This document shows, in pieces, positions 11,483 through 57,032 of a stretch of DNA of 64,000 nt (its first letter is position 1; each line of letters begins with the position of its first letter). The DNA is from Wickerhamiella versatilis. Its lineage: Eukaryota. The notes under the pieces were generated by a model. The model did no database searches. It was not told the origin of the DNA and was given only the letters and a program-made list of their open reading frames with translations. Both the position numbers and the translations under genes were made by a program. The DNA is taken from contig JAQOWU010000008.1 in NCBI GenBank assembly GCA_030867685.1, positions 1,984,001-2,048,000 of the forward strand. The letters are read 5' to 3'.

Positions 11483-11538
11483 AACGTATACAGTATGTTA
11501 GGTAATATAGAGATACCAGTAAGCCGAAGCCGCTCTTG

Positions 11539-39484: not shown

Positions 39485-40558
39485 TTATCTCAAGTAGGGG
39501 AATAGTTCAGTGACCGTTCTCGTCAGATACTCCTCAGTATCAACGGCGAATCTTGTCACATCACCCTCCTCATAAGATCCAGCAGCTTGCAATCTCTTTC
39601 GTTGCATACGAAATCGGTCTTCCAGAATCTTCAATCTGTATTCCAGCCACTGATACCCAAGAACCTTCATATCTGATACCGCGGATGCGTTTCCAAGATG
39701 AGTACAGTCGTGAACGAAAGGATCGCGAGGCCGCAAGCTTGTCACCATTGCAATACGCTCGGAGCAATTACGTGCCCTGAGGGCCGCGTGTTTAATTCTT
39801 GAACCCTGCAGAAGTACTACTCTACCCATTGCTGGACCTGGGACAACAGCAGTACTTCCATCTTTCTTCATGACAGCCGTCTCACCTCCCTCCATACCTG
39901 TTGTATCTGAGACCATCAGAACAGCTACAAAGGGCACATAATCGTAATGCCAATCATCAACAGGACGGCTGTCGTACACACTAGGAGGGGTACGTTCCGA
40001 TGCCGCAAGAGGGAGGGTCGGTACATCAGACAGGTCTTTGACACCTTCCTTTCCTTTGGGTCCTAGCTGGATATTCGTATGTGCAATTTCATAGTCACAA
40101 ACTGGGACCAATTCAATACCGGCGGCCTTTGAAATTGCCTCCAAGACCTTTGGATTTTTCCAGGCATCATAGATAAACTTTGACTGAGTCGGTGCGAATC
40201 CCCGGACAACATAAGGCGCACGCTCCGAGCCATAGACATGGTTTTTTTGCACAGGTTCTGATAAAAGATCATTGCGCATCAGCCGAACTGCTTCATCTGT
40301 AAATAATCTGAAAGGCGCTACTGCTGCAATCTCGCTAATACCATCCTTAGCGTTATCGTAGCCGAAATCGCTTAATCTCAGTTTCCATTCTGGTTCTTCA
40401 ATAGCAAGATGTGTTTCAGGGTCAAATTCTACCTTGGTTGGCATATATTTCCATTTCTTTTCTGGGATTCCATAGGATACCTGAGGAGAGAGCTCCACAG
40501 AAGGCTCAAACAGTTGTTCAGGGAGGGGTGCTGCTTGCTGGGCTGTTGCCGAAGCCAT
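39485..40558 (-). CDS. Fe(II)/2-oxoglutarate dioxygenase-fold protein, function unknown
   Basis: WHYD (HxD), GGET, distal KH and ERIAMVTS (2OG-binding Arg) in DSBH order. Confidence 0.8.
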   Translation of the reverse strand: MASATAQQAAPLPEQLFEPSVELSPQVSYGIPEKKWKYMPTKVEFDPETHLAIEEPEWKLRLSDFGYDNAKDGISEIAAVAPFRLFTDEAVRLMRNDLLSEPVQKNHVYGSERAPYVVRGFAPTQSKFIYDAWKNPKVLEAISKAAGIELVPVCDYEIAHTNIQLGPKGKEGVKDLSDVPTLPLAASERTPPSVYDSRPVDDWHYDYVPFVAVLMVSDTTGMEGGETAVMKKDGSTAVVPGPAMGRVVLLQGSRIKHAALRARNCSERIAMVTSLRPRDPFVHDCTHLGNASAVSDMKVLGYQWLEYRLKILEDRFRMQRKRLQAAGSYEEGDVTRFAVDTEEYLTRTVTELFPYLR

Positions 40559-41321: not shown

Positions 41322-43316
41322 TTATATGCCAAAGTCCTGATCCAATGCTGTAGCCTGGGTTGGTGGTGTTGCATCGTCCCAGTTTGCCAGAATATTTTCA
41401 TGGAGCAGAAAATTCCATATACTATCACCGTTGTTCATATCAGGTGGATCAAAAAGTCCAAAAGGATCAGGTGCTCTTTGGCTGGGTTGGACATTGGCTA
41501 GAGTTACAGGTGAAGAGTATGTGTGTCCAGCCATTACATGCGGATTTTGAGGCCATTTTTCAAGATGTGGGGATTCCGGATGCATATTGCTTTTTCGCCT
41601 ATCTCGCTTCATGAACCGTTGGCATATCAGCTCTAGAGGCTTTGAGTATATATGCTGATCTTCTGGCGGTAGCTGAGCCATGGTTTGGGAAGCCTTATAT
41701 AGGATACTGACAATATCCTGCTGCTTCTGTCGGTTGGCATAAACACCCTTTGTCAACAAGGTCTTAGCCAAAAAGACCGATGCATGAAGCAATCTCGTAA
41801 TCCATTGAATTGGCGAGAATCTTAAGTCAACAGGAATATCGTCTGCTGATTCGTGTTGAATAATAAATACTGCTGCTTTTATTGCCATATTTAGGAATTC
41901 GCGGGATTCCTCAAAATGTAGCAATTTGTCTACAGATTTTTCCTGCCATGACATCAGAACCACCGAAAAGACGTATAGCTGAAAATGTCGGAATTCGAAC
42001 ATAGTGGTACGGTCTGACCAGGCAGTACCCTCGACAATATCACTATAGTCCGATTCCCACTTTTTAACAAGTTCATGGACAAGGGTTAATATTGTAATAT
42101 GGTGGCCAGAGGATACAAGCCTCTGAGTCTCCGTGCGTGATCGATATAGAGATCGGTTAGCCAAATGCAGTAGCTTCACAATGTCTAGACGCGCTCTATC
42201 AGATAAACTGCATTGTCGAATAGCAGATTCAGGAAATTCTTCCTCTGCTCCATGCAGCTGGTCAAGCATAGGCTGCTGACCGAGTCTGCAGGCTAGGAGG
42301 TGATCAGAGAAATGCAGAGCTATAGTAGTTTGAATATCATTCTTTAAAAGGCCTGTATAGCGGGCAATACGTACTGCTTGTCCCATTAACGGCCAGCAAA
42401 TTCTGGTGTGCCTCCTTAAAGCCTCACCAGGAGAGGAGTTATTTTCTAGTAAGGTACCAGGGAACCACTCGCACAAAGTAAGGACCCCAAAGATTAGAGA
42501 TCTTACGTTGCACTGAGGACATTCCCACATCAACTCACTAACCGTTCTTTGACAGTACTTCCACAACTTTTCCTGTAAATTCCTATTATCGTTCACGTCG
42601 AGGCACCGCGCACCTACAGTACAAACCACAGACAGGAGCGCAGGCTCAGCAGCTATTCTCGCAAGCTCTTGATATTCTGAAGGAATATAGGATGCGTAAA
42701 ACGGTGCGATTTCAGCAAAGAAGAATCCAACCAACCTGCACACTTCTTCCGTGGAAAGAATTCCATCGGCAACTATAGCCGAATCATGAACTGGTATTCT
42801 TTGCGTTGATAGCAAAGTGTTATTTGAATTTTCAATAGAAATAGCTCGTTTTTTTGACCTGGGTTCCACTTGCCTATAATCAAAACCTGTAGCTATTGTC
42901 TTACTCGGGATTCCTCTTTTTCTCTCAGACGACGCTTGATGTAGAATCTCAATCGCATCATTTGGCGTGTACATCTCATTTTTCAAAACAGTGCTTTCTG
43001 TTATAGGTGACATTGGTCTTGACTGTGGGGCAGTTCCCTCTGCGAGACGCAATCTATCAGCAGCTTCCCGTTCCCGCTTCTCTTTTCCGGCTAAAACATT
43101 GCCATAACCACCCCTTTTGTCAATATCAGGAATTTCACATATCAAGTCTTCTTCACGGCATCTCCGGCACGGTGCTTTGTCGCCGTCAAAATCGCACCTT
43201 GTCTTACGCTTTCTACAACTCAAACAGGCTTTTCGTGCTCTCTTTCTACGATGAAACTCATCATTTTCTTCCGATGTGCCCATAGACGCATATACTGGAG
43301 ATTCATACTCATTCAT
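41322..43316 (-). CDS. Zn(II)2Cys6 transcription factor (Aro80-like architecture)
   Basis: RARKACLSCRKRKTRCD..PCRRCREEDLIC followed by a middle homology region (LTLCEW, CWPLMGQAVR). First ATG at 43316. Confidence 0.92.
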   Translation of the reverse strand: MNEYESPVYASMGTSEENDEFHRRKRARKACLSCRKRKTRCDFDGDKAPCRRCREEDLICEIPDIDKRGGYGNVLAGKEKREREAADRLRLAEGTAPQSRPMSPITESTVLKNEMYTPNDAIEILHQASSERKRGIPSKTIATGFDYRQVEPRSKKRAISIENSNNTLLSTQRIPVHDSAIVADGILSTEEVCRLVGFFFAEIAPFYASYIPSEYQELARIAAEPALLSVVCTVGARCLDVNDNRNLQEKLWKYCQRTVSELMWECPQCNVRSLIFGVLTLCEWFPGTLLENNSSPGEALRRHTRICWPLMGQAVRIARYTGLLKNDIQTTIALHFSDHLLACRLGQQPMLDQLHGAEEEFPESAIRQCSLSDRARLDIVKLLHLANRSLYRSRTETQRLVSSGHHITILTLVHELVKKWESDYSDIVEGTAWSDRTTMFEFRHFQLYVFSVVLMSWQEKSVDKLLHFEESREFLNMAIKAAVFIIQHESADDIPVDLRFSPIQWITRLLHASVFLAKTLLTKGVYANRQKQQDIVSILYKASQTMAQLPPEDQHIYSKPLELICQRFMKRDRRKSNMHPESPHLEKWPQNPHVMAGHTYSSPVTLANVQPSQRAPDPFGLFDPPDMNNGDSIWNFLLHENILANWDDATPPTQATALDQDFGI

Positions 43317-43530: not shown

Positions 43531-44922
43531 CTACGCATCCTCCTTGTTAGACCTCTCTTTTGGCGAATGAGTCGAGACCCCAATTAATCCCTCTAATGAA
43601 ATATCACCAAGATTTTCTTCCATTATCACAGAATCATAACCAGCCAATTCCTCCTCCTTAGTTATTCTTAAACGTAGACCAGGAATCCAATTCATTAGCA
43701 ACAAGATAACTACCGTCATAACAAACGACCAAGCAGCTATGGAAACACAACCCGCAAGATTATATCCAAGCTGCACCCAGTGTCCGTCAATCCAGCCACC
43801 ATCTACTTCTGTAGCCCCGTCAAGCTTAGCCACCCAGTCTGCTCCAAATAAAGCAGTACAGATTCCTCCAACGAAACCCCCAATTCCATGGAGATTGAAC
43901 ACCTCAAGACCTTCATCAATGCCCACGAGCCGTGCAAAGCCGTCAGTAAGATTGCAGATTAGTGCAGTAACAATACCAATAACGATAGCAAAGTAGAAAG
44001 GTACAAAACCTGCTGCTGGGGTAATACCGACAAGTCCTGCAATGACTCCTTCACATGCAGCAATTATGGACCACCGGTGTCCATTACGCAAGTAGTGGAC
44101 TATTGAGTAAGTGAGCAAGCCAGATGAAGCAGCAAGATTGGTATTACAGAAGGCATAAGTTGAACGGACAGTGTCATTCAGAGCAGTCCCAGAATTGAAA
44201 AATAACCACCCGAAATATATCAATGAAGTCCCCATAAATACAAGTAACACATTGTGTGGGCGTACCTTAGGAATCATATTTTTTCCGGTGCCATCCTCGT
44301 TATGTCTTGGCCCAAGTACTAATGCATAGGCCAACGCTCCAAAGCCGGAGGCAATATGAACTGGAGAACCCCCAGCAAAATCCATGGTGCCCAGCTTGTA
44401 AAGCCACCCGTTCGCATTCCAGGTCCAATATGCCGCAAAATCGTAGACTATTATTGACCATATGCAAGCAAAAATAATGCTAGGGATAACCCTTGCTCTC
44501 TCGTTTCCACCACCGATCATGATACAGACAGTGGCGACACAAAAGTAGCATTGAAAAATCGAATAGACAGGTTCATTAAGCTCCCCAACAGAAGGGTCAA
44601 CACTAGTTTTTACGCTTTTCATTCCTCCATTCCCAAGGGTGCCAATCATTGAATTCCCAGTAACCGAGCTTACAAGAGAGTATCCTAGCAAATACCAGAT
44701 GATACTGACAGCACCCCATACAAAAAAGTTCATGAAAAGAAGCGAAATTGCACTTCTCTTTCTTGAAAGTCCTGCGTATAGTAACGCAATTCCCGGCAAG
44801 ATCAGCCACACACAACCGGTACCAACCTGAATATATACATCACTTGGACCATTGTACTGAGTATTCACATCAGTAACCATGGGGTTTGGCCCACTTGGGT
44901 TACTGGGGTCATACGTAGACAT
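43531..44922 (-). CDS. Amt/Mep ammonium (methylammonium) permease
   Basis: PGIALLYAGL, DFAGGSPVH, GWLFFN, GLVGITPAAGFV and VFNLHGIGG with both pore histidines retained. First ATG at 44922. Confidence 0.95.
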   Translation of the reverse strand: MSTYDPSNPSGPNPMVTDVNTQYNGPSDVYIQVGTGCVWLILPGIALLYAGLSRKRSAISLLFMNFFVWGAVSIIWYLLGYSLVSSVTGNSMIGTLGNGGMKSVKTSVDPSVGELNEPVYSIFQCYFCVATVCIMIGGGNERARVIPSIIFACIWSIIVYDFAAYWTWNANGWLYKLGTMDFAGGSPVHIASGFGALAYALVLGPRHNEDGTGKNMIPKVRPHNVLLVFMGTSLIYFGWLFFNSGTALNDTVRSTYAFCNTNLAASSGLLTYSIVHYLRNGHRWSIIAACEGVIAGLVGITPAAGFVPFYFAIVIGIVTALICNLTDGFARLVGIDEGLEVFNLHGIGGFVGGICTALFGADWVAKLDGATEVDGGWIDGHWVQLGYNLAGCVSIAAWSFVMTVVILLLMNWIPGLRLRITKEEELAGYDSVIMEENLGDISLEGLIGVSTHSPKERSNKEDA

Positions 44923-45586: not shown

Positions 45587-45946
45587 ATGCCGATGAAATA
45601 CAAGCCTTCTGCTGAGGGAGCAGCTGTTAAGCCTCCTCAGATCCCCTCTCCTGGTAACAACTCCTTCTTGGGTGATATTTTTACCTCTGATGCACCTAAA
45701 GACAAGCAGATATCCTGTGGTTTCTTCAAACAGGAGAAAGGAGAACCATTGGTCTACACTTATGACTACGATGAGATGAAGGTATTTCTAGAGGTCGAGG
45801 GTGAGTACACACTCTCAGACGAAACCGGTTACAAGGTAAAGGTATCTCCTGGTGATGTTTTCTACTTCAACAATGGAAGTACCATTACTTTCGAGACCAC
45901 TGGATATGGTCTCGCATTCTTTACTGGGTTGCGCCCTACTATGTAG
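45587..45946 (+). CDS. EutQ-like cupin
   Basis: ISCGFF..EKG..LVYTYDYDEMK..EGE..SDETG..PGDVFYF..GSTITF, the EutQ/cupin_3 pattern. Confidence 0.85.
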   Translation: MPMKYKPSAEGAAVKPPQIPSPGNNSFLGDIFTSDAPKDKQISCGFFKQEKGEPLVYTYDYDEMKVFLEVEGEYTLSDETGYKVKVSPGDVFYFNNGSTITFETTGYGLAFFTGLRPTM

Positions 45947-46210
45947 ACTTTATCACATGATAGCCTGAGATATAAAACTATATAGAGCGGATAGTATTAA
46001 TATTCAACTCTTAGAATTTTTGTTATGAGCAGAGTTCTTAAATTCCCTAAATTTGAAATGTGATGGTTGAATTACAGAAGTTCCTTGGCTATGCTGAGAT
46101 TCCCCAGGATTCGCTAAGTTCTCATGGTTACATTAATACTATATAGGTAGACTGCCAGGTATCTTTTGTTATCGAGGCAGATTTTGTTTCTTTATGATAA
46201 TAATAATAAT

Positions 46211-47281
46211 CTATGAGCGCAAGTAAGCTAGCACAGGAGCGCCCCATATATGGCGTCCTTTATACTGTGCTGTGTCTTCAGGCCACGCTTCGAGAGCATC
46301 AGCACAAGTGTTACCCAATCCTTCCCGCTTCAGCTCTGCTAAAGAGTACATATATGTGCGGATGGAGAACCCCAAAAATCCTGTAACTGGAAGCCGGAAG
46401 AGTACTTGCCGCTCCAAACGTACAAATACAGAATTCTCAAAATCCAAATTTTTTACGTCAATTTCTCCATCAAATGAAAAATTACCAGAGGAATATAGAT
46501 CATTAACCTCTCCTAGCATGACACCGAAAGTCACTCTTTGCGTAAATGGCCCCGGCACAATGCGATGGAAGTAACGGTTCATAGATTTCTGGAGTCTTTC
46601 CTTATACTGAGGAACGGGTATGTGGATGTCGGTCAACTTTAGTCCCACCTTTTCGCGCCATTCGAAGCCAAGACCAGCAAGTCCAGAGCTAGCCTGTAAA
46701 CGGTACTCTTCAACACTTGGGTCATATTCGAGCACCATAATGTCTTCCTCAAGATTCACAGCGAGGATACGGAGAAGATCACGGGGATCAGAATTTTTTT
46801 CAGAGTAACGTGGCAGCTTACCACCTGTAATGGTATTGATTATCATATTTCCCTCTGGTTCAAAATATTTTGGATATCGTTGAGTGAGTGTATCCATAGC
46901 AAAGTCATACATTTCTTGGACAGCTTCAGTAGTTCTATAAGTACCATTGACCATGCAGGTAGTATCAGGATGCTCATTCATAATACGTCTATGATTTGCC
47001 ATGGCCTGTAAATAGACGCTATCAATTTTCAACCAGTCCTGACGCTTGGAGCGTGTCACGTTCATCGTAACGTGATAAGTAGATTTAAAAGGGCGATATT
47101 TGTCGGGGTCTTCAGTACTCCAATCGAAGCCTGGGGGTACTGGTTCGATTTTACCCCAATCAGTCTTGGACTGAAACCGCGACTTATTTCCTCCAGAAAT
47201 GAAGCGATTCCAAAGCGCAATGACTACAATGAATAGAACTACAAGGATGCCCACAAGATATGGGGACATGGAGAAAGTCAT
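46211..47281 (-). CDS. DUF3445 / heme-dependent oxidative N-demethylase alpha-subunit-like protein, N-terminal membrane anchor (paralog 1)
   Basis: TM segment (YLVGILVVLFIVVIALW), YRPFK..HVTM, LEEDIMVL, KVGLKLTDIHIPVPQY and VRLERQVLFRLP.TG...FSIRTY. Confidence 0.88.
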   Translation of the reverse strand: MTFSMSPYLVGILVVLFIVVIALWNRFISGGNKSRFQSKTDWGKIEPVPPGFDWSTEDPDKYRPFKSTYHVTMNVTRSKRQDWLKIDSVYLQAMANHRRIMNEHPDTTCMVNGTYRTTEAVQEMYDFAMDTLTQRYPKYFEPEGNMIINTITGGKLPRYSEKNSDPRDLLRILAVNLEEDIMVLEYDPSVEEYRLQASSGLAGLGFEWREKVGLKLTDIHIPVPQYKERLQKSMNRYFHRIVPGPFTQRVTFGVMLGEVNDLYSSGNFSFDGEIDVKNLDFENSVFVRLERQVLFRLPVTGFLGFSIRTYMYSLAELKREGLGNTCADALEAWPEDTAQYKGRHIWGAPVLAYLRS

Positions 47282-47358
47282 CTCTGTTTTCTCCCGTCTG
47301 TGCGAGAGAATTTTATCAGCAAAGGGTCTGTTTATAGATATGACCGGGTTTATTACAT

Positions 47359-47625
47359 GCGTTGTCAGCCAAATCCCGACGAAATGTCGAACCCCGCGTT
47401 GTCAGCATGCGTATCGTCAAACACCGAAACAAGGTACTTTGATGAAACAGTTTCTACGCAAATAGACAGTTCAAATGAGATTTGTGGTTTTAGAGAAGGA
47501 TAATATGACTTAATTTGGAGAAATAATAGAAATACAGAGTGGATGGATCACGCTATCCAAAGGCATGATAGATGAACGCCTCCGTGGTTGGGGAGATAAC
47601 TAATCTGCGATAAGGTCAAAAGCCG
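47359..47625. promoter_or_regulatory. Bidirectional promoter of the DUF3445 pair: three TCRRANNCCG sites, an 11-bp direct repeat and GATA sites
   Basis: TCGAACCCCG 47387-47396, TCAAACACCG 47417-47426, TCAAAAGCCG 47616-47625; GCGTTGTCAGC at 47359 and 47396; GATAAG 47609-47614. Confidence 0.65.
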
Positions 47626-47676
47626 GGTGAGTTATATACAGACCTAGTTTCCGATGGTGTGTGTTGTGTTTGCGCA

Positions 47677-48789
47677 ATGGACAAATTCCTTTCTGGATTG
47701 CCGATACCAGCTTTGACGGCACACATAGGGTCGGTGTGGGCCTCGATTTTGTTAGTGCTAATTTTCGGGGCTGTTGGCTTGCTACTGGTTTCATACTCTT
47801 TCTCTAAGAAGAAGACATATGCACCAAAAGTTGATGCTGTATCGAAAGACTATGACTGGCGTACGAGAGTGCCAGAAAATTTCCGCCCAATGAAGCCTGT
47901 ATATCACATGGTTATGAATGTTGGCAAAATATCACCTGATAACTGGCTCTACATCGATAGCGACTACGAGTGGGTGACGAGTGTCCACTCAAAAATCTTG
48001 GATGAGCACCCAAATGATACTTGTAAAGCAAATGCCTCTGCGGAAACATCTAGAGCAATTGAGGAGCTTTATGATTTAGTATTTGGCGTACTAGTACAAC
48101 AGTACCCGCAATATTTTGTTGTAAAGGGCAAAACAATCATTAATACAATACTGAATACGAGGATTCCACGCTATGGATCGGGAAGTAAGCTTTCCTCAGA
48201 GGAACTACTACGTGTTCTTATGAAGAATACGGAGGAGGATTTCCAATTACTGCAGCATGACCCAGTTTCAGACGAGTTTGTTGTCAGGGGAATTGGTGGT
48301 CTAACTTCTGATGGCTATAGTTGGAAGAAAAAACTCAACAGAAAATTGACTGACGTTCATACTCCTGTTCCAGGCTATAAGGAAAAACTCAAGAATTCTA
48401 TGAACAAGTTCTTCAAAAAGCTCCAGCCCGGTCTTTTTATTCAACGGTTCACCTGGGGTATACATATAGGCTCCTGTGAACAAATTTACTACCCAGTAAG
48501 AGACCATGTAGGGTCTGGTGAAGGAGGGAAATTCAAAGAATCAGATATCGATTTCGAGAAGGGGGCCTGGCTACGTGTAGAACGTCAAGTACCTACTAAG
48601 CTACCGAAAAGTGGATTCCTCATTTTAACGCAGCATACATTCTGGTATCCATTAAAGGACCTCAAGAATGAAGGTATTGGTGACTTGACAGCAACAAGTA
48701 TAGAGGCATGGCCAGACGTCTTTGCTGAGTACAAAGGTAGACCAGATTGGGGAGAAGCTGTAAATTCCTGGCTGCGGAGAAAAGAATAA
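47677..48789 (+). CDS. DUF3445 / heme-dependent oxidative N-demethylase alpha-subunit-like protein, N-terminal membrane anchor (paralog 2)
   Basis: TM segment (WASILLVLIFGAVGLLLV), FRPMKPVYHMVM, TEEDFQLL, KLTDVHTPVPGY, QRFTW and LRVERQ..KLPKSG. First ATG at 47677. Confidence 0.88.
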   Translation: MDKFLSGLPIPALTAHIGSVWASILLVLIFGAVGLLLVSYSFSKKKTYAPKVDAVSKDYDWRTRVPENFRPMKPVYHMVMNVGKISPDNWLYIDSDYEWVTSVHSKILDEHPNDTCKANASAETSRAIEELYDLVFGVLVQQYPQYFVVKGKTIINTILNTRIPRYGSGSKLSSEELLRVLMKNTEEDFQLLQHDPVSDEFVVRGIGGLTSDGYSWKKKLNRKLTDVHTPVPGYKEKLKNSMNKFFKKLQPGLFIQRFTWGIHIGSCEQIYYPVRDHVGSGEGGKFKESDIDFEKGAWLRVERQVPTKLPKSGFLILTQHTFWYPLKDLKNEGIGDLTATSIEAWPDVFAEYKGRPDWGEAVNSWLRRKE

Positions 48790-49130
48790 AAAAATGTCTT
48801 TTTTTGCTAACTTGTAACTGCATGGCAGCCCGAGTAAATGTTTATTTAGTGTTCTTATGAATCTAAGCACGCGCATATTTAATGCCTTGTTCCTTTTTAT
48901 TTTTTTTGGTGGATTCACTCAGGTTTTGTCGCTTAGGAGTTCTAGTAGCTGACTGCTTCCTAATGGCTAGATTACGCATTTGTCTAACAAAACTTGTCAA
49001 ATAGGCTACTTTCGAGATGCGTCCAAGAACAAAAAAGGTAACAAAAAACAAGAGTACCACTTATAATTTGACTGCGATAGTCATGCAACTAGTAATATTT
49101 TATCTAGAAATAAGCTAAACAGAGTTCGGT

Positions 49131-51143
49131 TCATAGACGCTGCTCACCATGGCAGCTCTTCACTTCCACAGAGCGATTGAATTGTTGATTTGACGTAGGT
49201 ACGTCCATTGCTGGGTTTTCAGAGAAAAAGCCATAAGGATGAAGGCCGACAACAATTCGTTCCATGGGCATGATAGGAAAGTCTTCGATTCTGGGATAGT
49301 GCGTGAGACCAAAAGAGTGCCACAATACCACATCATCGTTACGCACATTTTCATTACGCTTAACCGCATCGGAACAGCCACCGGTTTCTTCTGCGCTTTG
49401 GTTTGTCCAATTTCCTCCGGCATAAAATTCCTGATCTTTGTGCTTCGTAACCCAGAAGTGATGTGTAGCGTATTTCGCACGCGAGCGAGCAACCGTACCC
49501 TCTGGGGCCATGAGAAGGGCTGACGGGAAAGGTGCAAGCTTATAACCAACAGGCTCCATAGTAATGGGATTGATCTTGTTCTCATTGACGATCTTAATGA
49601 AGCGGTTTTTAGACTGGTCACAATCAAGATACGAAGAGCGCTCGACATATGTAGGGTCATTGTAGAATCCAGTACCATATGGGTTTAGAGAATCCCGCGG
49701 TGGATGCTTGGTATCGCATACCACCACAGAATTAGAATGACCGTCAATAGCAGGGTCAACACGCATTGAGAAAACGTGCTGGTGGCCAGCAGCCAATACT
49801 GAAGGCGCTACAACAGTGCCCCACTTGCTTTTCTTACCAGGGTCAATGTATTGTGTAGAAATTACACCTGTTGCTCTAACCTCGAGTTCAACGCATCCTA
49901 CCTGGTCGAAGTGCCAGTTGAAAATGTATTCGTAGTTAGCGACAGTGATGACAGTTTGAAGGATCAAGATACGGCGTCTTACTACTCTGCCGACCCCAGT
50001 GCGGAAATTAGCATGCTTAAGAAGAATACCATCATCTTGTTCATGCATGCATACGACATTTTTGCGTTGCTCAACATTTCCGTCTGCATGGGTCAGGACA
50101 CCATCAAAATACTTGATAACACCGAGACAGTCGCAGCCAAGACCTAGAGAGTTGGCCGAGAATCCGGCACCGTAATCACCGAGATCAAATGCCTGTTTAC
50201 GGTGAAGTGGAGGACGAGGATCACTATAAGGCACAGTCATCTCGCTCACAGACAAACGATAGAAAAGCATCCGACCGTCATAACGTACATCACCAATAAC
50301 AAGCCCTTCGCGAGGATTGAACATCACACGGAAGCTCCACTTCTGCCAATTAACAAGACTGCCATCCACACTAAAAGATGGCCCATTTGGCTGAATCACA
50401 TTGTATGGCTGCAAGTCTGTACGCATTCCTGTTGATCGCAATTCAGGCATGTATTCAACTCCCTCGAAATCTTCGATAATGGAACCCTTACTATTACGAG
50501 TGTTATAGTTGATCTCCCCATTAGTGTCATCTCCCTCATTACCCGTTGCACACCAATCAATTCGCTCCAGTTTCTGCTCGAACGAGTCAACAACTGGCAC
50601 GAATGGTAATGGCAGAGCATAAATGTTTGATTCCTCATGTCTGTTTTTTGGATTGCGCATAAACATGAGGAACATAACATATCGTGGTTTTGTAACCTCC
50701 GAATCGCAGCCGTATACCCAAGGGTCAGCTGCCACCAAAGGAATCAAATCACCTGTTATGCCACACTGCTTGAGCGCATCAAGCACCTTTGGCTCCTTCA
50801 ACATCATTTGTTCGAGAGTTCCTCCCTCGATCATGTCTATCATAGCATGTTTTCCTACGGGGAAAGACTCCTGCTTGATAATAACCTGAGTGTCAAGGTT
50901 AATCCAAGCCTGCTCCGCACGCTTGTCCGATAAAATCAAGTAAACCGCATATGCAATACGCGGAGGCGGAGGGATCTTATGACCAGAATGCTCGGCATCG
51001 AGGTATTTCACCATGTATTTTTTGGGTGGTTCTTCGGTTTGAATTCCCTTGATGTGCAAAGCTTTACCACTGTTTGAATCTCTGAGAATCTTAACGGCAT
51101 TTTTGGCTTCCGCCACCGTAAGCTGGTCGAGGGGATGTACCAT
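49131..51143 (-). CDS. Copper amine oxidase (TPQ), methylamine-oxidase-like, probably peroxisomal
   Basis: HPLD, AFDLGDYG (catalytic Asp), TVANYEY (TPQ), HQH and THYP copper ligands, EDFPIMP; C-terminal QRL. Confidence 0.95.
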   Translation of the reverse strand: MVHPLDQLTVAEAKNAVKILRDSNSGKALHIKGIQTEEPPKKYMVKYLDAEHSGHKIPPPPRIAYAVYLILSDKRAEQAWINLDTQVIIKQESFPVGKHAMIDMIEGGTLEQMMLKEPKVLDALKQCGITGDLIPLVAADPWVYGCDSEVTKPRYVMFLMFMRNPKNRHEESNIYALPLPFVPVVDSFEQKLERIDWCATGNEGDDTNGEINYNTRNSKGSIIEDFEGVEYMPELRSTGMRTDLQPYNVIQPNGPSFSVDGSLVNWQKWSFRVMFNPREGLVIGDVRYDGRMLFYRLSVSEMTVPYSDPRPPLHRKQAFDLGDYGAGFSANSLGLGCDCLGVIKYFDGVLTHADGNVEQRKNVVCMHEQDDGILLKHANFRTGVGRVVRRRILILQTVITVANYEYIFNWHFDQVGCVELEVRATGVISTQYIDPGKKSKWGTVVAPSVLAAGHQHVFSMRVDPAIDGHSNSVVVCDTKHPPRDSLNPYGTGFYNDPTYVERSSYLDCDQSKNRFIKIVNENKINPITMEPVGYKLAPFPSALLMAPEGTVARSRAKYATHHFWVTKHKDQEFYAGGNWTNQSAEETGGCSDAVKRNENVRNDDVVLWHSFGLTHYPRIEDFPIMPMERIVVGLHPYGFFSENPAMDVPTSNQQFNRSVEVKSCHGEQRL

Positions 51144-51192
51144 GGCTAACTATTTGGTGCTTAGAAGCTTTAAATAGGGCGGGTTCCTATCT

Positions 51193-51278
51193 CTTATCAA
51201 CAGTTGTAAGCGGGAGTTGGCTGTCAGAAGCCGATCGGCTTCCGATAGGTGTTCGATCCATGTCCGGTGTCTGACAAA
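51193..51278. promoter_or_regulatory. Amine oxidase promoter: 16-bp palindrome, three TCRRANNCCG sites and GATA
   Basis: GAAGCCGATCGGCTTC at 51227-51242; motif sites at 51224-51233 (+), 51236-51245 (-) and 51265-51274 (-); CTTATC at 51193-51198. Confidence 0.7.
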
Positions 51279-51348
51279 CGATAAATCAATCAATCTCCTA
51301 ACCATACATTATATAAAACTGGCATTTTTAGTTTATTATCCGTACTTA

Positions 51349-52869
51349 CTACAACTTCGTAAACAAACCACTGCAAGCACCTTTTGTGTGCTGTATTAGG
51401 GTGCTCTTAGTTCTCAAGTAAGCCTTTATACCTTCTTCTCCATTTTCTAGGCCGATACCACTCATCTTCCAGCCCCCCACAGGCATCTCTGCAGGTGACT
51501 CACCCCATGTGTTGATCCAAGTAATCCCCGCTTCCAGTTTTTGGATGACCATAGTGGCCAATGCGGCATCTGAAGTTACAACCCCGGCCGCCAGACCCAT
51601 TGGTGTATCATTAGCTCGGGCAACAACTTTCTGAAGCCAATCATCACCATTTGTACTGTAGGGTAGGATGCACATTACCGGTCCAAATATTTCTTCACGT
51701 ACCACGCGCATGTTATCAGCACAGTTAGTGAATACAACCGGTGGCACCCAGAACCCACCAGATGTAGGCTGAACACTCTGAGCGTCAGCAGATCCATCGT
51801 AGAGAACTTTCGCCCTGTCAATATCGCGGCCATGGCGAATATACATCTTGACTTTAGCCTGATGCGCGGAGCTCACAACAGGTCCGAAGTTAGTATCTGC
51901 TTCTTGTGGCATTCCCATTCTAATACCACCTCTACAGCGGCTGATGATAGCTTCTTCAACAGGTCCAAGTAAAACATCAGGGACGAAAACTCTTGTTCCG
52001 TTGGTACACACCTGACCAGTGGAAAAAAAATTGGCAGCCATGGCTACATCTGCTGCTTCCTCTATGTCAGCGTCGGGCAGCACAACAAGAGGGCTCTTAC
52101 CACCTAATTCCATGGTAACCCCTTTCATACCACCCGCAGCGGAACTGGCGACCTTGCTGCCTGTGCTCACTTGTCCGGTGAAACTTACTTTTGCAATGCT
52201 GGGATGACTTACAAGAGGTGCCCCCACACTCATTCCATCACCGTAAACCACATTAAATACACCAGCTGGTACACCAGCTTCGATATATATCTCGGCAAGG
52301 GTGTTAGCATGAAGAGGTGTAACCTCACTTGGTTTATAGACCATACAGTTACCAGCTGCTAGACAAGGGGCAGATTTCCAAAGAGCGATTTGGATAGGAT
52401 AGTTCCAGGCACCGATGCCTGCGCAAACTCCTAGTGGCTCGTTGGTCGTGTATACTGATGCATCTTCCCTCAAACGGGTATATGATCCTGGGAGTCCACC
52501 AGCTACCTGATGGGCATAGTACTCTAAAACATCTGCTCCTGTGATAATATCCACGGTCGAGGTCTCGGAATATGGCTTTCCCGTGTCAAGTGTTTCGGTG
52601 AGTGCCAACTCATTATTGCGCTCACGAAGTATAGAAACGGCACGAAGCAATATTTCTGCTCGTTTAGAAGCTGGCGTATTGGACCATTGAGAGAATGCAG
52701 TCTGCGCAACTGATATGGTCTGCTCCAGCTCTGCGGGTGTTGTGGTGTAAACAGTTGCTAGAGGATTCCCGGTTGCTGGATCATAAGAGTGGAATTTCAC
52801 GGAAGAAGATGAAACTGGCCTCTGAGGCTTTCCCGAATGGAAAGTATAGATCTCAGAGGAGAACGTCAT
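51349..52869 (-). CDS. Betaine aldehyde dehydrogenase (BetB/ALDH9-like)
   Basis: GIGAWNYPIQIALWKSAPCLAAGN, KPSEVTPL, MELGGKSP, GQVCTNGTRVFV and WGESPAEMPVGG; C-terminal TKL. First ATG at 52869. Confidence 0.9.
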   Translation of the reverse strand: MTFSSEIYTFHSGKPQRPVSSSSVKFHSYDPATGNPLATVYTTTPAELEQTISVAQTAFSQWSNTPASKRAEILLRAVSILRERNNELALTETLDTGKPYSETSTVDIITGADVLEYYAHQVAGGLPGSYTRLREDASVYTTNEPLGVCAGIGAWNYPIQIALWKSAPCLAAGNCMVYKPSEVTPLHANTLAEIYIEAGVPAGVFNVVYGDGMSVGAPLVSHPSIAKVSFTGQVSTGSKVASSAAGGMKGVTMELGGKSPLVVLPDADIEEAADVAMAANFFSTGQVCTNGTRVFVPDVLLGPVEEAIISRCRGGIRMGMPQEADTNFGPVVSSAHQAKVKMYIRHGRDIDRAKVLYDGSADAQSVQPTSGGFWVPPVVFTNCADNMRVVREEIFGPVMCILPYSTNGDDWLQKVVARANDTPMGLAAGVVTSDAALATMVIQKLEAGITWINTWGESPAEMPVGGWKMSGIGLENGEEGIKAYLRTKSTLIQHTKGACSGLFTKL

Positions 52870-53269
52870 GGTCAAACAAAAATTCGAATTCCCGATTAGA
52901 AAGCGTTTACCGTAATAACGTAGATTGCTCGCGGCCCTTGCCCTTATCTTTCTTTTACAGGTTTCTCATCAAGTCATATTGGCTATTCGCCAAAAACTGA
53001 TTCGTGGCGTATATTTCCAGGCCAAGGAAAGGGGAGCAGTATTACCCGGCAAGAAATATCGACTGTGGTAAAGCCTCTTATTCACTGTTCATGTCATAGG
53101 AATTAAATGCGTTGATTCAAACATATGTAGTCGTATAAGCCCAAAGCTGGTGGTCAATAGCCAGCAAAGCTGTGACTTGTCCGTGCCCGATATCATTAAA
53201 ACCCGTCGAACCCTTACCCTTTATCGGTATATATTTTTCTGTGCGATACTCTCTAATCCTCCCAGAACT

Positions 53270-54889
53270 ATGACTACCGAGATTTTGCCTGAAAACGCTA
53301 GCTACGACTATATCATTGTTGGGGGAGGTACTGCTGGTTGCGTGATTGCCGAACGTTTATCTGCGTACCTGCCAGAACGCAAGATTCTTCTTATCGAAGC
53401 AGGGCCCTCTGACTTCCATATTGGCCAAGTTTTGCAACTCAGAGAGTGGCTTGGTCTGCTTGGAAGCGAGTACGACTATGATTATGGCACAGTTGAGCAG
53501 CCTTTTGGTAACAGCAACATCAGACACTCCAGAGCTAAGGTTTTGGGGGGCTGCTCGTCTCATAACACGTTGATCTCGTTCCGTCCGCTCAAGTATGACA
53601 TGGATAGGTGGGTCAAAGATGGATGCAAAGGTTGGGATTTCTCAACTGTAATGCGTCTCTGTGATAAGCTGCGTAACACCGTCCAGCCAGTTCACGCTCG
53701 TCATCGCAACCAGCTCTGTAAAGACTGGGTCCAATCTTGCTCGAGCGCTTTGGGAATCCCCATTCTGGATGACTTCAATGCAGGAATTAAGAAGTCCGGA
53801 AAACTTGAGGAAGGTGTTGGCTTTCTTTCGATCTCGTATAACCCTGATGATGGGAAGCGCAGCAGTGCCTCTGTCGCTTACATCCACCCTATCTTGAGAG
53901 GCGAGGAAAAACGACCTAATTTAACTGTGCTAACAGAGGCTTGGGTATCAAAACTTCACGTTGAGAATGATGTTGCTACGGGCATTGATGTGACACTTAA
54001 ATCAGGCCAGAAGCGCTTCTTGAAGCCCGGTAAGGAGATCGTTCTCTGCGCAGGTGCTATTGATACGCCTCGTCTGATGCTGCTTTCAGGCATTGGTCCT
54101 AAGGCCGAGCTTGAGAAGGTAGGAATTCCTGTTGTCAAGGACTTGCCAGGTGTAGGCGAAAATTTGCTTGATCATCCAGAGTCCATCATCATGTGGGAAC
54201 TAAGTAAACCGGTGCCCCCTAACCAGACTACGATGGATTCGGATGCTGCTATTTTCCTTCGCCGCGAGCCCACCAATGCGGCTGGTGCTGGTGACGGTGA
54301 TGCTGATATTATGATGCATTGTTACCAGATCCCGTTTACGCTCAACACTCAGCGGCTTGGCTACCCTGATGTACCAGATGGATATGCCTTTTGTATGACG
54401 CCTAATATTCCGCGTCCTCATTCCCGTGGTCGTCTATACCTTACCAGTTCGGATCCCAGTGTTAAGCCTGCTCTGGACTTCCGTTACTTCACTGACCCTG
54501 AGGGTTATGATGCAGCCACTCTTGTAGCCGGGATCAAGGCTGCTCGTAAGGTAGCTCAGCAAGCTCCTTTCCGTGACTGGATCAAGCAGGAGGTAGCTCC
54601 TGGTCCTAAAGTGCAAACCGACGAGGAAATCAGCGAATATGCTCGTCGTGCTCATCACACGGTATATCATCCAGCAGGAACTACTAAGATGGGTGACGTA
54701 TATCGCGATGAACTTGCTGTTGTGGATCCAGAACTTAAGGTTAAAGGCATCAAGAACCTGCGGATCGCAGATGCTGGTGTTTTCCCTGAAATGACCACAG
54801 TAAACCCCATGCTAACGGTTTTGTCCATTGGTGAGCGCGCTGCTGAGCTCATGGCGTCGAACGATTGGAGTCCAGATGCTCGTCTGTAG
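53270..54889 (+). CDS. Choline oxidase (CodA-type GMC flavoprotein), peroxisomal
   Basis: GGGTAG, HSRAKVLGGCSSHN (flavinylation His of Arthrobacter-type choline oxidase), DHPE, TVYHPAGT and TVNP; PTS1 ARL. First ATG at 53270. Confidence 0.92.
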   Translation: MTTEILPENASYDYIIVGGGTAGCVIAERLSAYLPERKILLIEAGPSDFHIGQVLQLREWLGLLGSEYDYDYGTVEQPFGNSNIRHSRAKVLGGCSSHNTLISFRPLKYDMDRWVKDGCKGWDFSTVMRLCDKLRNTVQPVHARHRNQLCKDWVQSCSSALGIPILDDFNAGIKKSGKLEEGVGFLSISYNPDDGKRSSASVAYIHPILRGEEKRPNLTVLTEAWVSKLHVENDVATGIDVTLKSGQKRFLKPGKEIVLCAGAIDTPRLMLLSGIGPKAELEKVGIPVVKDLPGVGENLLDHPESIIMWELSKPVPPNQTTMDSDAAIFLRREPTNAAGAGDGDADIMMHCYQIPFTLNTQRLGYPDVPDGYAFCMTPNIPRPHSRGRLYLTSSDPSVKPALDFRYFTDPEGYDAATLVAGIKAARKVAQQAPFRDWIKQEVAPGPKVQTDEEISEYARRAHHTVYHPAGTTKMGDVYRDELAVVDPELKVKGIKNLRIADAGVFPEMTTVNPMLTVLSIGERAAELMASNDWSPDARL

Positions 54890-55391: not shown

Positions 55392-57032
55392 ATGACCGCA
55401 TTAAAGCAAGTGCCCAAGGAAACTGGCTATGGTAAAAAGAATGATTCTGAATCTGAATCAATTCTTTACGACAGGTTTCGGCGGAGTCAAGAATCCAGTG
55501 AGGGGTTATTGGCAGGTAACGAGCGTCTTGGTGAATTAGGGTACAAACCAGAGTTGAAAAGGGAATTCACGTACTTTTCTGCCTTCTCCTTCGCCGTGTC
55601 AGTCTCCGGTTTATTTGGCACTATAGCCACAACTTTTACTTATCCGCTCATGGCTGGTGATTCAGCGTGTGTGGTGTGGGCTTGGGCCATAGGTGGTGTG
55701 GGGTGTCTGTGTATAGCTTATTCTGTGGCTGAGCTTGTCAGTGCGTACCCAACCTCTGGTGGACTTTATTACGCATGCAGTAAAGTCTTCCCAAAGAAAT
55801 GGGCCCCGTTCATGTGTTGGGTGGATGGATGGGTGAATCTTCTTGGACAGATAGCAGGGGTTGCCTCAAGTGATTATGGTGCTGCACAAATCATTCTTGC
55901 TGCAGGACAAGTTGGAACGGATTTCAAGTACAACCCCACAACCAACCATGTAGTGGGTGTGATGGCTGGTATTCTAGTCGTGCAGGGCATGATAAGTTGT
56001 ATGCCAACTCGTTACATTGAAAAATTCACAAAATTCTACGTAGTATTTCATTTTGGTGCGTTGTTTGCGGGTGCAATAGCCTTACTGGCAAAGACTAAAC
56101 CGAAGTTCGACGCCTCATATGTGTTCACTCATGTGGAGCAACATAACAATTGGAACCCTCGTGGATTTTCGTTTCTTTTCGGATTCCTGAGCGTTGCTTG
56201 GACAATGACAGATTACGATGCCACTGCACATATCTGTGAGGAGATGTCTGATCCAGAGCGAAAAGCGCCTTGGGCCATTTCGATGGCAATGACTTTTACT
56301 TATGTTCTTGGCTTCCTGTATAACATTGTCCTTTGTTTTGCCATGAAATTGCCGGAATCACTTACCCAGGGTGAAGACTCAATTAAATACCTTCTAAACT
56401 CGGACCAGCCGGTAGTGATGATGTATATGTCACTTGGAAAAGGGGGAGCAGTTACATTCGCGGTGTTCATGTTTATTGTCATTAACTTCCTTGGCCTTAG
56501 TGCATTACAAGCAGCTAGCCGCACGATGTGGGCTCAAGCTCGCGATCATATGTACCCTGGCAGTTCTGCTCTTCTGTATCATGTTAACCGGCTGACAAAG
56601 ACCCCGGTGAACTGTGTGGTGTTCTGTACTATCCTCTGCATTGCAATAAATTTAATTGCATTGGGAAGTCAGGAGACTATCACTGCAATTTTCAATGTGG
56701 CCGCTATTGCTCTCGATTGGTCCTATTGCTGGCCTATCATGGGAAAAATGATGTTCCCTAATTTATTCAAGCCTGGTCCTTGGCACTTAGGTCCAGCCTC
56801 ATTTTTTATAAACTTCTATGCTGTTGCGTGGACAAGTTTCGTAACTATTATTTTCTTTTTCCCCACAGAAAGGCCTGTTACGAAAAATAATATGAACTAC
56901 GCTGTAGTATTTTTTGTGTTTATTATTACGGCATCAGTCGTATGTTGGTTCTCTGGTGGATCCAAGGTTTACAAAGGTCCCTCAGCAACTGCGCCTAAGG
57001 AAGAGGATGAAGTTCGCGGTAAGACCGATTAA
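55392..57032 (+). CDS. APC-superfamily ACT permease (HNM1/UGA4/TPO5-like; choline/amine/GABA)
   Basis: LGYKPELKREF, AELVSAYPTSGGLY, WTMTDYDATAHICEE, PGPWHLG and NMNYA. Confidence 0.88.
   Translation: MTALKQVPKETGYGKKNDSESESILYDRFRRSQESSEGLLAGNERLGELGYKPELKREFTYFSAFSFAVSVSGLFGTIATTFTYPLMAGDSACVVWAWAIGGVGCLCIAYSVAELVSAYPTSGGLYYACSKVFPKKWAPFMCWVDGWVNLLGQIAGVASSDYGAAQIILAAGQVGTDFKYNPTTNHVVGVMAGILVVQGMISCMPTRYIEKFTKFYVVFHFGALFAGAIALLAKTKPKFDASYVFTHVEQHNNWNPRGFSFLFGFLSVAWTMTDYDATAHICEEMSDPERKAPWAISMAMTFTYVLGFLYNIVLCFAMKLPESLTQGEDSIKYLLNSDQPVVMMYMSLGKGGAVTFAVFMFIVINFLGLSALQAASRTMWAQARDHMYPGSSALLYHVNRLTKTPVNCVVFCTILCIAINLIALGSQETITAIFNVAAIALDWSYCWPIMGKMMFPNLFKPGPWHLGPASFFINFYAVAWTSFVTIIFFFPTERPVTKNNMNYAVVFFVFIITASVVCWFSGGSKVYKGPSATAPKEEDEVRGKTD

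Follow-up and report, generated by a model that had tools for sequence, protein, structure and literature searches.

Which genes encode the yeast enzymes that demethylate dimethylamine and trimethylamine, and might a divergent gene pair lying among genes of amine metabolism be the source of them? Biochemical descriptions of yeast growth on choline, trimethylamine and dimethylamine go back to the 1980s, and either the activity or growth on trimethylamine has been reported for Candida utilis and Ogataea parapolymorpha. According to those sections of Linder 2017 that concern the enzymes, there are two distinct activities, localised to the ER and inhibited by CO and cyanide, whose genes had not been identified; a non-P450 haem enzyme was raised as a possibility, and Sch. 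stipitis strains deleted for the two CYP candidates showed no phenotype (PMC5816127). The abstract of the same paper describes the glutathione pathway gene SFA1 as essential in yeast on methylated amines, and genetic redundancy as frequent in the methylated-amine pathway (PMC5816127). A preliminary description of the DNA studied here had likewise regarded the genes of the yeast microsomal amine monooxygenases as unassigned, a view that these sections bear out (PMC5816127), and we found no gene assignment in the literature later than Linder 2017.

A divergent pair of PF11927 paralogs

In the window, a stretch of 64,000 nucleotides from Wickerhamiella versatilis, two intact open reading frames lie head-to-head, with 395 bp separating their start codons:

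46211..47281, minus strand: gene A, an ATG-to-stop frame for a 356-residue PF11927 (HODM alpha/DmmC-like) protein with a predicted N-terminal anchor (Pfam, AF2 model, structure match)
47677..48789, plus strand: gene B, an ATG-to-stop frame for a 370-residue PF11927 paralog with a predicted N-terminal anchor (Pfam, AF2 model, Foldseek)

Both proteins match PF11927 (HODM_asu-like) far above the gathering score of 25 bits, A with 235.5 bits (E 9.2e-70, residues 77-351) and B with 221.4 bits (E 1.9e-65, residues 84-362). PF11927 is the sole Pfam family found in either protein at E<=0.01, and the P450 profile is absent. This was the outcome of a DUF3445 profile check that the preliminary description had suggested, and its reading of the pair as two diverged, divergently arranged paralogs holds as well: the frames are in place and, at 38% identity (139/363; E 1e-93), A and B are by sequence clearly diverged paralogs. 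Of the Leu codons, 12% are CTG, and this codon occupies Leu positions in housekeeping genes (PGK and RLI1-like), a usage that fits translation by the standard code.

The fungal family has 3457 representatives at E<=1e-3, and the five papers found to name it assign it no function. A single query placed it in at least 25 named species of budding yeast, among them four of Scheffersomyces as well as Spathaspora, with no Saccharomyces among the named matches listed. The names of yeast records include 'HRQ family protein 2' and '4', which point to several paralogs per yeast, and functions within the family may therefore differ. Such 'HRQ' proteins, from the CTG clade and from budding yeasts outside it, for example J8A68_003730 of [Candida] subhashii and 'HRQ family protein 4' of Spathaspora passalidarum, belong to the same Pfam family as A and B and, like them, mostly carry an N-terminal hydrophobic segment; none has an assigned function. 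They are, however, only ~30% identical to A and form a 100-row clade of their own in the family tree. In this tree the A clade (4 rows) and the B clade (2 rows) each have a support of 100 and fall together within a 22-row clade; as judged from the tree, A and B descend from old lineages, each conserved on its own. In addition, a 7-sequence alignment recovered 15 fungal loci from metagenomes at 26-46% identity, and a scan of 34 ORFs in six of them found no amine-catabolic neighbours. Because the scanned loci belong to distant, intron-bearing relatives, they are hardly informative for A and B.

Predicted anchors, fold and conserved residues

Each protein contains a lone strongly hydrophobic 19-mer, beginning at residue 5 in A (Kyte-Doolittle 2.74) and at residue 20 in B (2.76); no further segment of this kind was found in either, every other 19-mer scoring at most 1.6. 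AlphaFold renders the anchors as helices, 7-30 in A and 14-42 in B, and the N-terminal TM anchor ascribed to each protein in the earlier reading is thus borne out by hydropathy and models together. The corresponding codons are:

47201..47269, minus strand: signal-anchor codons of A, residues 5-27, hydrophobic and then basic (N-R...K-S-R), from hydropathy and the model helix
47734..47802, plus strand: signal-anchor codons of B, residues 20-42, hydrophobic and then K-K-K, from hydropathy and the model helix

A comparable N-terminal hydrophobic 19-mer occurs in 141 of 216 family sequences. A and B are accordingly predicted, in silico, to be membrane-bound through one N-terminal hydrophobic helix. 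We infer the ER as their compartment, with a topology in which the haem domain would be cytosolic, because the basic residues come after the anchor.

The AF2 models of A and B have pLDDT values of 78.4 and 81.2. When superposed on HODM, a comparison also suggested by the preliminary description, model A aligned to 5lth with Z 26.0 and an rmsd of 3.4 A over 292 residues (chain residues 5-333; VIA-align). The next-best structure match of A after HODM alpha reached Z 6, and the PAS domains of the haem sensors EcDOS and FixL gave Z 5.0-5.6. Model B matched 5lth in Foldseek with E 4e-16 and TM 0.67/0.73. These comparisons support a HODM-alpha fold, that is, a PAS-like haem domain with flanking helices, in the models of both proteins. 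The motifs of interest within it are:

46610..46624, minus strand: H220-I-P-V-P224 of A, with the candidate proximal haem ligand His, invariant and aligned to a His of 5lte_A
48358..48372, plus strand: H228-T-P-V-P232 of B, with the candidate proximal haem ligand His, aligned to the same His of 5lte_A
46406..46420, minus strand: R288-L-E-R-Q292 motif of A, aligned to L-R-V-E-L-Q of HODM alpha
48574..48588, plus strand: R300-V-E-R-Q304 motif of B, from the alignment to 5lte_A

The H.PVP His and the R.ERQ motif had both been picked out earlier, and both are indeed present in A and B. Across a family alignment of 44 sequences, the His of H.PVP, R249, R288 and Q292 (A numbering) are invariant in all 44, E290 is at least 90% conserved and D180 is nearly invariant; these residues, together with the RTY and YKG stretches, are identical in 5lte_A. 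H220 and H228 align to the His in W-H-S-P-V-P of 5lte_A, which we take to be the haem ligand of HODM alpha. The portion of PMC8694187 that lists the haem-b PAS domain of 5LTE gives it as residues 155-290, and the H.PVP-aligned His falls inside. By these alignments A and B are candidates for haem binding via the His conserved in H.PVP. HODM alpha is only ~20% identical to either protein (pairwise E-values 2.5e-05 and 1.1e-06), and the DmmC of a cupin-linked bacterial locus is 26% identical over 128 residues to a protein of the yeast pair, levels so low that substrate specificity is not transferable. One family position separates the paralogs: the Arg of the RTY strand is kept in A (R308) and is His in the B clade (H320 in B).

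A PAS core in common with EcDOS and FixL could also be that of a membrane haem-PAS gas or redox sensor, or of an oxidase for an unrelated metabolite, in which case the place of A and B in the cluster would reflect co-regulation or chance. This reading is in keeping with a large fungal family of no assigned function whose distant fungal members lie in unrelated gene contexts. We nevertheless regard it as distinctly improbable, since HODM alpha is matched at Z 26 along the entire soluble part of some 300 residues, where sensor PAS domains reach Z 6, since the family-conserved residues are identical in HODM at aligned positions, and since an output domain is absent from both A and B.

Promoters and transcription

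Between the two genes lies a single intergenic region:

47282..47676, no strand: shared divergent A/B promoter, 395 bp, read from sequence

It contains 4 GATAA sites in its 395 bp, the whole window having 2.36 per kb. GATAA density in the cluster promoters is about twice that of the whole window, which serves as the baseline, and this enrichment is at most a hint of nitrogen-catabolite control. An 11-mer is present in two exact copies, at 47359 and 47396; the duplication is not significant, 3 matches having been reached in 6 of 100 shuffles. No 8-mer was common to more than three of the seven cluster promoters. In one sequencing run (X1), whose RNA label is a guess, contigs span 45594-47355 and 47638-54999 without covering the divergent promoter; adjacent contigs differ strongly in depth, a transcript-like pattern in a run of unproven type. 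Two other runs from the same study gave no contigs at the locus, and among RNA runs on record none contains it.

Divergent transcription from one promoter would also suit an arrangement with no substrate split, in which A and B are either subunits of one heteromer or isoenzymes that duplicate each other on the same amine. PAS domains commonly dimerise, and the frequent redundancy described for the pathway's genetics by Linder 2017 (PMC5816127) speaks for this arrangement too. Prediction of an A-B heterodimer, which scored 0.37 with one control at 0.48, tips the balance neither way. The arrangement seems to us rather improbable, however, given two old lineages with full clade support, given the B-clade His for the RTY Arg, which argues for a changed pocket and not for redundancy, and given that two distinct activities are reported biochemically in those same sections (PMC5816127).

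The surrounding nitrogen-scavenging cluster

The pair is flanked by the following genes:

39485..40558, minus strand: Fe(II)/2-oxoglutarate-dioxygenase-like protein at the cluster edge (Pfam match sub-threshold, E 0.0074)
41322..43316, minus strand: Zn2Cys6 transcription factor, candidate cluster regulator (Pfam Zn_clus, E 3.8e-07)
43531..44922, minus strand: Amt/Mep-family ammonium (methylammonium) transporter (Pfam, E 3e-98)
45587..45946, plus strand: EutQ-like cupin of 119 residues, convergent with gene A (Pfam Cupin_3 and EutQ)
49131..51143, minus strand: copper amine oxidase of the AMO2/HPAO-2 type, primary amines (Pfam, E 7.3e-156)
51349..52869, minus strand: betaine-aldehyde-dehydrogenase-like ALDH (PDB 2wme_A, E 3e-157)
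53270..54889, plus strand: choline-oxidase-like GMC flavoenzyme (PDB 2jbv_A, E 2.1e-123)
55392..57032, plus strand: APC-family permease (Pfam AA_permease_2, E 2.9e-62)

By these assignments the pair sits in a nitrogen-scavenging cluster, with the Amt transporter, copper amine oxidase, permease and Zn2Cys6 factor all inside 18 kb. Seven neighbour genes are amine- or ammonium-related and the eighth is the Zn2Cys6 factor, a context that also speaks against a sensor or an unrelated oxidase placed here by chance. The protein at the cluster edge has as its nearest ESM Atlas clusters ones named 'Fe2OG dioxygenase domain-containing protein' (score 0.98). The clustered amine oxidase matches 3loy_A best in the PDB (E 1.5e-162), with peroxisomal methylamine oxidase entries at ~1e-119, and an N-terminal PTS2 is absent from it; by sequence, then, it is of the AMO2/HPAO-2 type and not of the peroxisomal methylamine-oxidase type. 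Enzymes of the former type favour larger amines, as stated in the introduction of Linder 2017 (PMC5816127). A cluster of B, amine oxidase, ALDH, GMC enzyme, Amt transporter and permease kept in a close relative is consistent with our comparisons (members at least 90% identical). Among 19 scanned ORFs of the window, none encodes reductase (Fer2/NAD_binding), DmmA-like or GcvT-like (GCV_T) domains. The earlier remark that no reductase subunit is encoded here therefore stands for the window, and a folate-binding subunit is absent as well.

The presence of choline-oxidase-like and betaine-aldehyde-dehydrogenase-like genes in the cluster makes glycine betaine and dimethylglycine serious alternative substrates. 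The haem N-demethylase mechanism would then be the same, and the substrates would be N-methylated glycines or amino alcohols made within the cluster. For instance, the permease might import choline, the GMC enzyme and ALDH might convert it to glycine betaine, and A and B might carry this stepwise to sarcosine and glycine; or perhaps choline, dimethylethanolamine or methylethanolamine is demethylated towards ethanolamine for the amine oxidase. Both the choline oxidase match (2jbv) and the betaine aldehyde dehydrogenase match (2wme) belong to genes within 5 kb of the pair, and the preference of the clustered oxidase's type for larger amines (PMC5816127) points the same way. Even so, we consider these substrates, the chief alternative to our preferred reading, unlikely. 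Going by the title of the 5lth entry, dimethylamine is the substrate of the sole characterised PF11927 member; the glycine route leaves the copper amine oxidase without a primary amine to act on; and the cited sections of Linder 2017 contain a biochemical report for di- and trimethylamine (PMC5816127), whereas none is known for a yeast microsomal betaine demethylase.

A cupin family shared with bacterial dimethylamine loci

The gene nearest to A on its other side, the cupin, is separated from it by 264 bp, and its product shares 50-54% identity with cupins of bacterial methylotrophs, from Methylophaga, Methylophilaceae and some Actinomycetota. A DmmC-family (PF11927) gene lies within 8 kb of the cupin in 16 of 44 bacterial cupin loci, comprising 7/7 actinobacterial, 6/7 Methylophaga-type and 3/30 other loci; the remaining 28 have no DmmC gene within that distance, some of their contigs being short. 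In one bacterial locus (L017) the order is Amt ... cupin, GcvT, DmmA-like, Fer2/NAD reductase and PF11927, and both this locus and another (L018) encode Fer2/NAD_binding, DmmA-like and GCV_T domains. In one DmmC-free locus, FMO-like and DUF1989-GcvT genes (Tmm/Tdm-like) adjoin the cupin. Large ETF-linked genes near some bacterial cupins were considered as trimethylamine dehydrogenase and rejected, as they are CCG/4Fe-4S proteins.

On sequence grounds, the cupin beside gene A is a member of the family that accompanies bacterial dimethylamine monooxygenase operons. Since the same cupin family stands beside bacterial dmm operons, it lends independent support to a dimethylamine link of the pair. 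Its recurrence in bacteria weighs against a sensor role, and its bacterial ties, which are with loci for dimethylamine and trimethylamine rather than for betaine, weigh against N-methylated glycines as the substrates. The yeast cupin was possibly acquired from bacterial methylotrophs. Joint acquisition of the yeast Amt transporter and the cupin from bacteria was rejected, the yeast Amt being only 22% identical to that of L017.

A proposed role in methylated-amine catabolism

On the evidence of sequences and models, we lean towards reading A and B as ER haem N-demethylases for dimethylamine and trimethylamine, an assignment that we judge somewhat probable. Against it weigh the low identity to HODM alpha, the want of a reductase, DmmA-like or GcvT-like gene in the window, the choline-oxidase-like and betaine-aldehyde-dehydrogenase-like neighbours, an amine oxidase unlike the peroxisomal methylamine oxidase, the 28 bacterial cupin loci free of DmmC, the six fungal loci free of amine genes, and the several paralogs of yeasts. 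A and B would represent a eukaryotic, single-pass anchored form of the catalytic haem subunit HODM alpha/DmmC, kept in the ER membrane by the signal-anchor, the PAS-like haem domain facing the cytosol and the haem held by the H.PVP His that the family keeps invariant. NAD(P)H would supply electrons via a general ER redox partner, perhaps the P450 reductase or cytochrome b5 put forward in the preliminary description, and not via a dedicated subunit, and an N-methyl group would be hydroxylated and then lost as formaldehyde. Jointly, the paralogs would take trimethylamine through dimethylamine to methylamine, after which the adjoining copper amine oxidase would free ammonia, and the Amt transporter, permease and Zn2Cys6 factor would provide uptake and control. 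It is in this conditional sense that we infer the electron donor, the substrates and which paralog takes which amine.

The closest characterised counterpart is bacterial HODM alpha/DmmC (Pseudomonas mendocina, 5LTE/5LTH/5LTI; dmmDABC), which has in common with A and B the PF11927 domain, the fold over the whole soluble part, the conserved His, Arg, Glu, Gln, RTY and YKG residues, and a cupin of the same family nearby. A and B differ from it in the added membrane anchor, in forming a diverged pair, in being eukaryotic and in their distant sequence relationship. Nor, in contrast to bacterial DmmDABC, do they adjoin genes for DmmA-like, reductase or GcvT/folate subunits, and with these missing, the electron donor and the fate of formaldehyde must differ from those of the bacterial complex. 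Microsomal P450 N-dealkylases may offer an analogy, with their N-terminal ER anchor and cytosolic haem domain and their NAD(P)H- and O2-dependent N-dealkylation releasing an aldehyde. In contrast to P450s, A and B have a PAS-like fold and no P450 Pfam match, and their candidate ligand is a His where that of P450 is a Cys.

The orphan microsomal activities have no sequence, and their likeness to A and B lies in reported properties: predicted membrane anchoring, a haem family that fits CO and cyanide sensitivity, and two proteins for two activities, found amid amine-catabolic genes. We postulate that, in yeasts that use amines, A and B are the genes behind the CO- and cyanide-sensitive microsomal mono-oxygenase activities on di- and trimethylamine. 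In its full form, in which the pair would be the missing yeast microsomal mono-oxygenase genes and the first eukaryotic, membrane-bound, stand-alone DmmC/HODM, with a general ER electron chain and a cupin accessory, the proposal is tentative, a real possibility that stops short of being probable.

The last published genetic attempt, as recounted in the sections of Linder 2017 that deal with it, addressed P450 genes, found nothing and called for a non-P450 haem candidate (PMC5816127). The pair is a concrete and cheaply testable candidate of this kind, and PF11927 ('HRQ') is a candidate family for the same step in other yeasts. Were the substrates instead N-methylated glycines, a different and equally open gap would be filled, that of how budding yeasts break down N-methylglycines. 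If our preferred reading of A and B as demethylases of dimethylamine and trimethylamine is true, a gap in models of yeast nitrogen metabolism would be closed and a conserved cupin would gain a functional setting. A PAS-type haem oxygenase, known only in a four-subunit bacterial complex, would then work as an anchored single subunit in eukaryotes, and the 'HRQ' family would constitute an unrecognised second class of ER haem N-dealkylases alongside the P450s.

Results

The head-to-head genes A and B, proposed yeast di- and trimethylamine demethylases, are two intact ORFs lying exactly where the preliminary description had placed them, transcribed divergently from a 395-bp spacer within a cluster that spans 39.5 to 57 kb of the window. 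The gene order is Fe(II)/2-oxoglutarate-dioxygenase-like, Zn2Cys6, Amt, cupin, A, B, copper amine oxidase, ALDH, GMC and APC permease.

Features of the gene cluster (positions in the window)
39485-40558, minus: Fe2OG-dioxygenase-like protein, 357 aa; Pfam 2OG-Fe(II) oxygenase sub-threshold (E 0.0074)
45587-45946, plus: EutQ-like cupin, 119 aa
46211-47281, minus: A, intact ORF, 356 aa, PF11927
46358-46360, minus: R308 of A, RTY-strand position
47677-48789, plus: B, intact ORF, 370 aa, PF11927
48634-48636, plus: H320 of B, RTY-strand position (Arg to His in B)
49131-51143, minus: copper amine oxidase, closest to 3loy (E 1.5e-162)
within 51349-54889, divergent to the GMC gene: ALDH, best solved relatives betaine aldehyde dehydrogenases (2wme, E 3e-157)
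within 51349-54889, divergent to the ALDH gene: GMC enzyme, nearest Arthrobacter choline oxidase (2jbv, E 2.1e-123)

Both proteins score far beyond the 25-bit Pfam cut-off for PF11927 (DUF3445; 'Haem-dependent oxidative N-demethylase, alpha subunit-like'), A at 235.5 and B at 221.4 bits, which confirms the family first assigned to them, and the Pfam scan of the pair returned no other family. At 38% identity (363 columns, E 1e-93) they are the clearly diverged paralogs originally described. CTG makes up 12% of Leu codons and occurs at Leu positions of the housekeeping PGK and RLI1-like genes; because it is an ordinary Leu codon here, the standard-code translations stand.

A single strongly hydrophobic 19-mer begins at residue 5 of A (Kyte-Doolittle 2.74) and residue 20 of B (2.76), all other windows being at or below 1.6, and this points to the N-terminal TM anchor envisaged for both; N-terminal 19-mers of at least 1.8 occur in 141 of 216 family members. 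In each protein, basic residues follow the hydrophobic stretch. Under the positive-inside rule the basic flank of an anchor faces the cytosol, which would place the catalytic part of A and B on the cytosolic side.

AlphaFold models (pLDDT 78.4 for A and 81.2 for B; pTM 0.79 for both) consist of a long N-terminal helix, an ill-defined linker and a compact alpha/beta domain. The superposition on HODM proposed as a check succeeded with these models: residues 54-356 of predicted A span residues 5-333 of 5lth, the dimethylamine complex of HODM alpha, the haem subunit (DmmC) of bacterial dimethylamine monooxygenase (Z 26.0, rmsd 3.4 Å, 292 residues), and Foldseek against 5lte/5lth gave E 2e-16 for A and 4e-16 for B. 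Model A next matches ordinary PAS domains, the haem sensors EcDOS and FixL among them, at only Z 5-6. Sequence-only matches to 5lte_A are weak (E 2.5e-05 and 1.1e-06). The two motifs first noticed, H.PVP and R.ERQ, are present in both proteins and align residue for residue with 5lte_A (H-I/T-P-V-P with W-H-S-P-V-P, R-x-E-R-Q with R-V-E-L-Q), as do the RTY and YKG stretches. H.P[VI]P occurs in 182 of the 216 members, and a 44-sequence alignment of fungal relatives has Y90, E123, H220, P224, R249, R288, Q292 and L297 invariant (A numbering). The aligned His of 5LTE, the presumed haem iron ligand, falls within segment 155-290. This segment is listed as a haem-b-binding PAS domain in a PAS survey (PMC8694187).

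An exhaustive profile search found 3457 family representatives at E<=1e-3 and 320 at E<=1e-30. All 25 organism-named members among the 91 proteins from a word-limited search with a named relative as query, in which absences mean little, are from budding yeasts (Scheffersomyces, Spathaspora, Yamadazyma, Metschnikowia, Hyphopichia, Diutina, Babjeviella, Geotrichum, Nadsonia and others, and Candida maltosa), some being annotated 'HRQ family protein 2' or '4'. In a FastTree phylogeny of 216 members, A with three orthologs (81, 66 and 65% identical) and B with one ortholog each form a group with support 100 inside a 22-row clade (support 97). Most named yeast proteins occupy a separate 100-row clade, the exceptions being Geotrichum and Nadsonia, in a third clade, and Capronia. 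Since A and B fall in separate supported groups, their duplication is old. The conserved RTY Arg, also present in HODM alpha, is His ('QHT') throughout the B lineage (B, its family relative P0007 and near-identical copies), a predicted pocket change such as would be expected of paralogs with different substrates. The pair may divide substrates, be redundant or form a heteromer.

The cluster appears to be kept in close relatives, since members at least 90% identical to six of its proteins share one and the same value for their longest contig. The copper amine oxidase, whose closest structure we presume to be the second, benzylamine-preferring Hansenula amine oxidase, matches peroxisomal methylamine oxidase entries at about 1e-119; it begins at the conserved H-P-L-D region, with no N-terminal extension able to carry a PTS2, and its C-terminal -Q-R-L differs from a canonical PTS1. 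No Pfam family reaches threshold for the 39485-40558 protein, in which an H-x-D ... H pattern is present. Its ESM Atlas neighbours (score 0.98, Ascomycota) are labelled Fe2OG dioxygenase, and it may represent a third cluster oxygenase, possibly catalysing another dealkylation. For ALDH and GMC the best solved matches are bacterial, and bacterial ancestry is possible.

The A/B promoter holds four GATAA sites in 395 bp and an exact 11-mer twice (47359-47369 and 47396-47406, 37 bp apart), not significant alone. Contigs of sequencing run X1, from a ~98%-identical relative and of uncertain type, cover 45594-47355 and 47638-54999, ending 74 bp upstream of the A ATG and resuming 39 bp upstream of the B ATG, so that the shared promoter is uncovered; neighbouring contigs have depths of 328, 49, 179, 107 and 29, and the overall pattern may be transcript-like. 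Elsewhere, the start of a 459-aa ORF at 61541-62920 (plus), with no Pfam match, overlaps by 44 bp the 5' end of a divergent protein-kinase gene (59713-61584).

The cupin (family signature P-L-V-Y-T-Y-D-Y-D-E-M-K) has bacterial relatives at 50-54% identity, and on that basis may have been acquired from bacteria. A profile search of a prokaryote collection found 44 bacterial cupin loci, almost only from methylotrophs (Methylophaga, Methylophilaceae, Methylotenera, Methylophilus), with seven from Actinomycetota. By tblastn, 16 of the 44 have, within 8 kb of the cupin, a DmmC-family gene together with DmmA- and DmmB-like genes; DmmC is near the cupin in 7/7 actinobacterial, 6/7 Methylophaga-type and 3/30 other loci. 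By our estimate, chance would bring a gene present once per genome of a few Mb this close in far fewer than 1 in 100 loci. Among the 28 loci without DmmC, 16 were sampled and 73 ORFs from 14 scanned (L042 and L049 left out). In one (L062, Methylophilaceae, 8634-12714), an FMO-like gene and a DUF1989-GcvT fusion come after the cupin; trimethylamine monooxygenase and TMAO demethylase belong to these families. Fae, N-formylglutamate amidohydrolase and DAO-type genes occur in two loci, and the others contain housekeeping or ETF genes. In an actinobacterial MAG (L018, 9338-11611), PF11927 occupies residues 471-749 of a 757-aa ORF overlapping the preceding DmmA-like ORF, which could reflect either a fusion or spurious ORF calling in GC-rich DNA.

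One locus, L017, reads Amt, two small genes, cupin, GcvT, DmmA-like, Fer2/NAD reductase and PF11927; because this matches the dmmDABC order of Lidbury 2017 (PMC5520151), its PF11927 gene corresponds to DmmC. A and the yeast Amt share only 26% and 22% identity with the DmmC and the Amt of L017, respectively, far below the cupin, so the yeast cluster re-creates the pairing of cupin and DmmC and did not inherit an operon whole, which argues for a functional tie to di-/trimethylamine metabolism.

Discussion

The most economical reading, and one we think somewhat probable, takes A and B for haem N-demethylases of HODM/DmmC type, anchored in the ER and His-ligated, which would convert trimethylamine and dimethylamine to methylamine. 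The family, fold, motifs and anchor partly support the amine demethylases first proposed, and the cupin evidence strengthens this interpretation; a non-demethylase role for the pair is unlikely. As originally described, no reductase subunit is encoded here, there being no reductase, DmmA-like or GcvT gene within the 64-kb window. Electrons would come from a general ER donor, methylamine would pass to the amine oxidase, and formaldehyde would be left to the glutathione pathway, which Sch. stipitis requires on methylated amines according to Linder 2017 (PMC5816127).

The main rival, possible if rather doubtful, keeps the mechanism and makes the substrates glycine betaine and dimethylglycine, which would come from the adjacent choline-oxidase-like and ALDH genes. 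Linder 2019 (PMC7033051) notes that N-methylated glycines are used by some yeasts through unknown enzymes and that choline-to-glycine pathways otherwise 'appear to be absent in budding yeasts', so that the ALDH and GMC genes are notable in themselves.

For di- and trimethylamine demethylation, Linder 2017 describes two distinct, ER-localised, CO- and cyanide-sensitive activities, deletion of two candidate P450 genes without phenotype, and a search that found no candidate. We found no later gene assignment in the titles and abstract openings of papers citing that title, no fungal function for DUF3445, PF11927, IPR021848 or HODM_asu in the article texts examined (subscription journals and supplements being outside the scope), and no literature record combining the cluster's components; an earlier assignment elsewhere is possible. 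With A and B as candidate di- and trimethylamine demethylases, a forty-year-old orphan step becomes directly testable.
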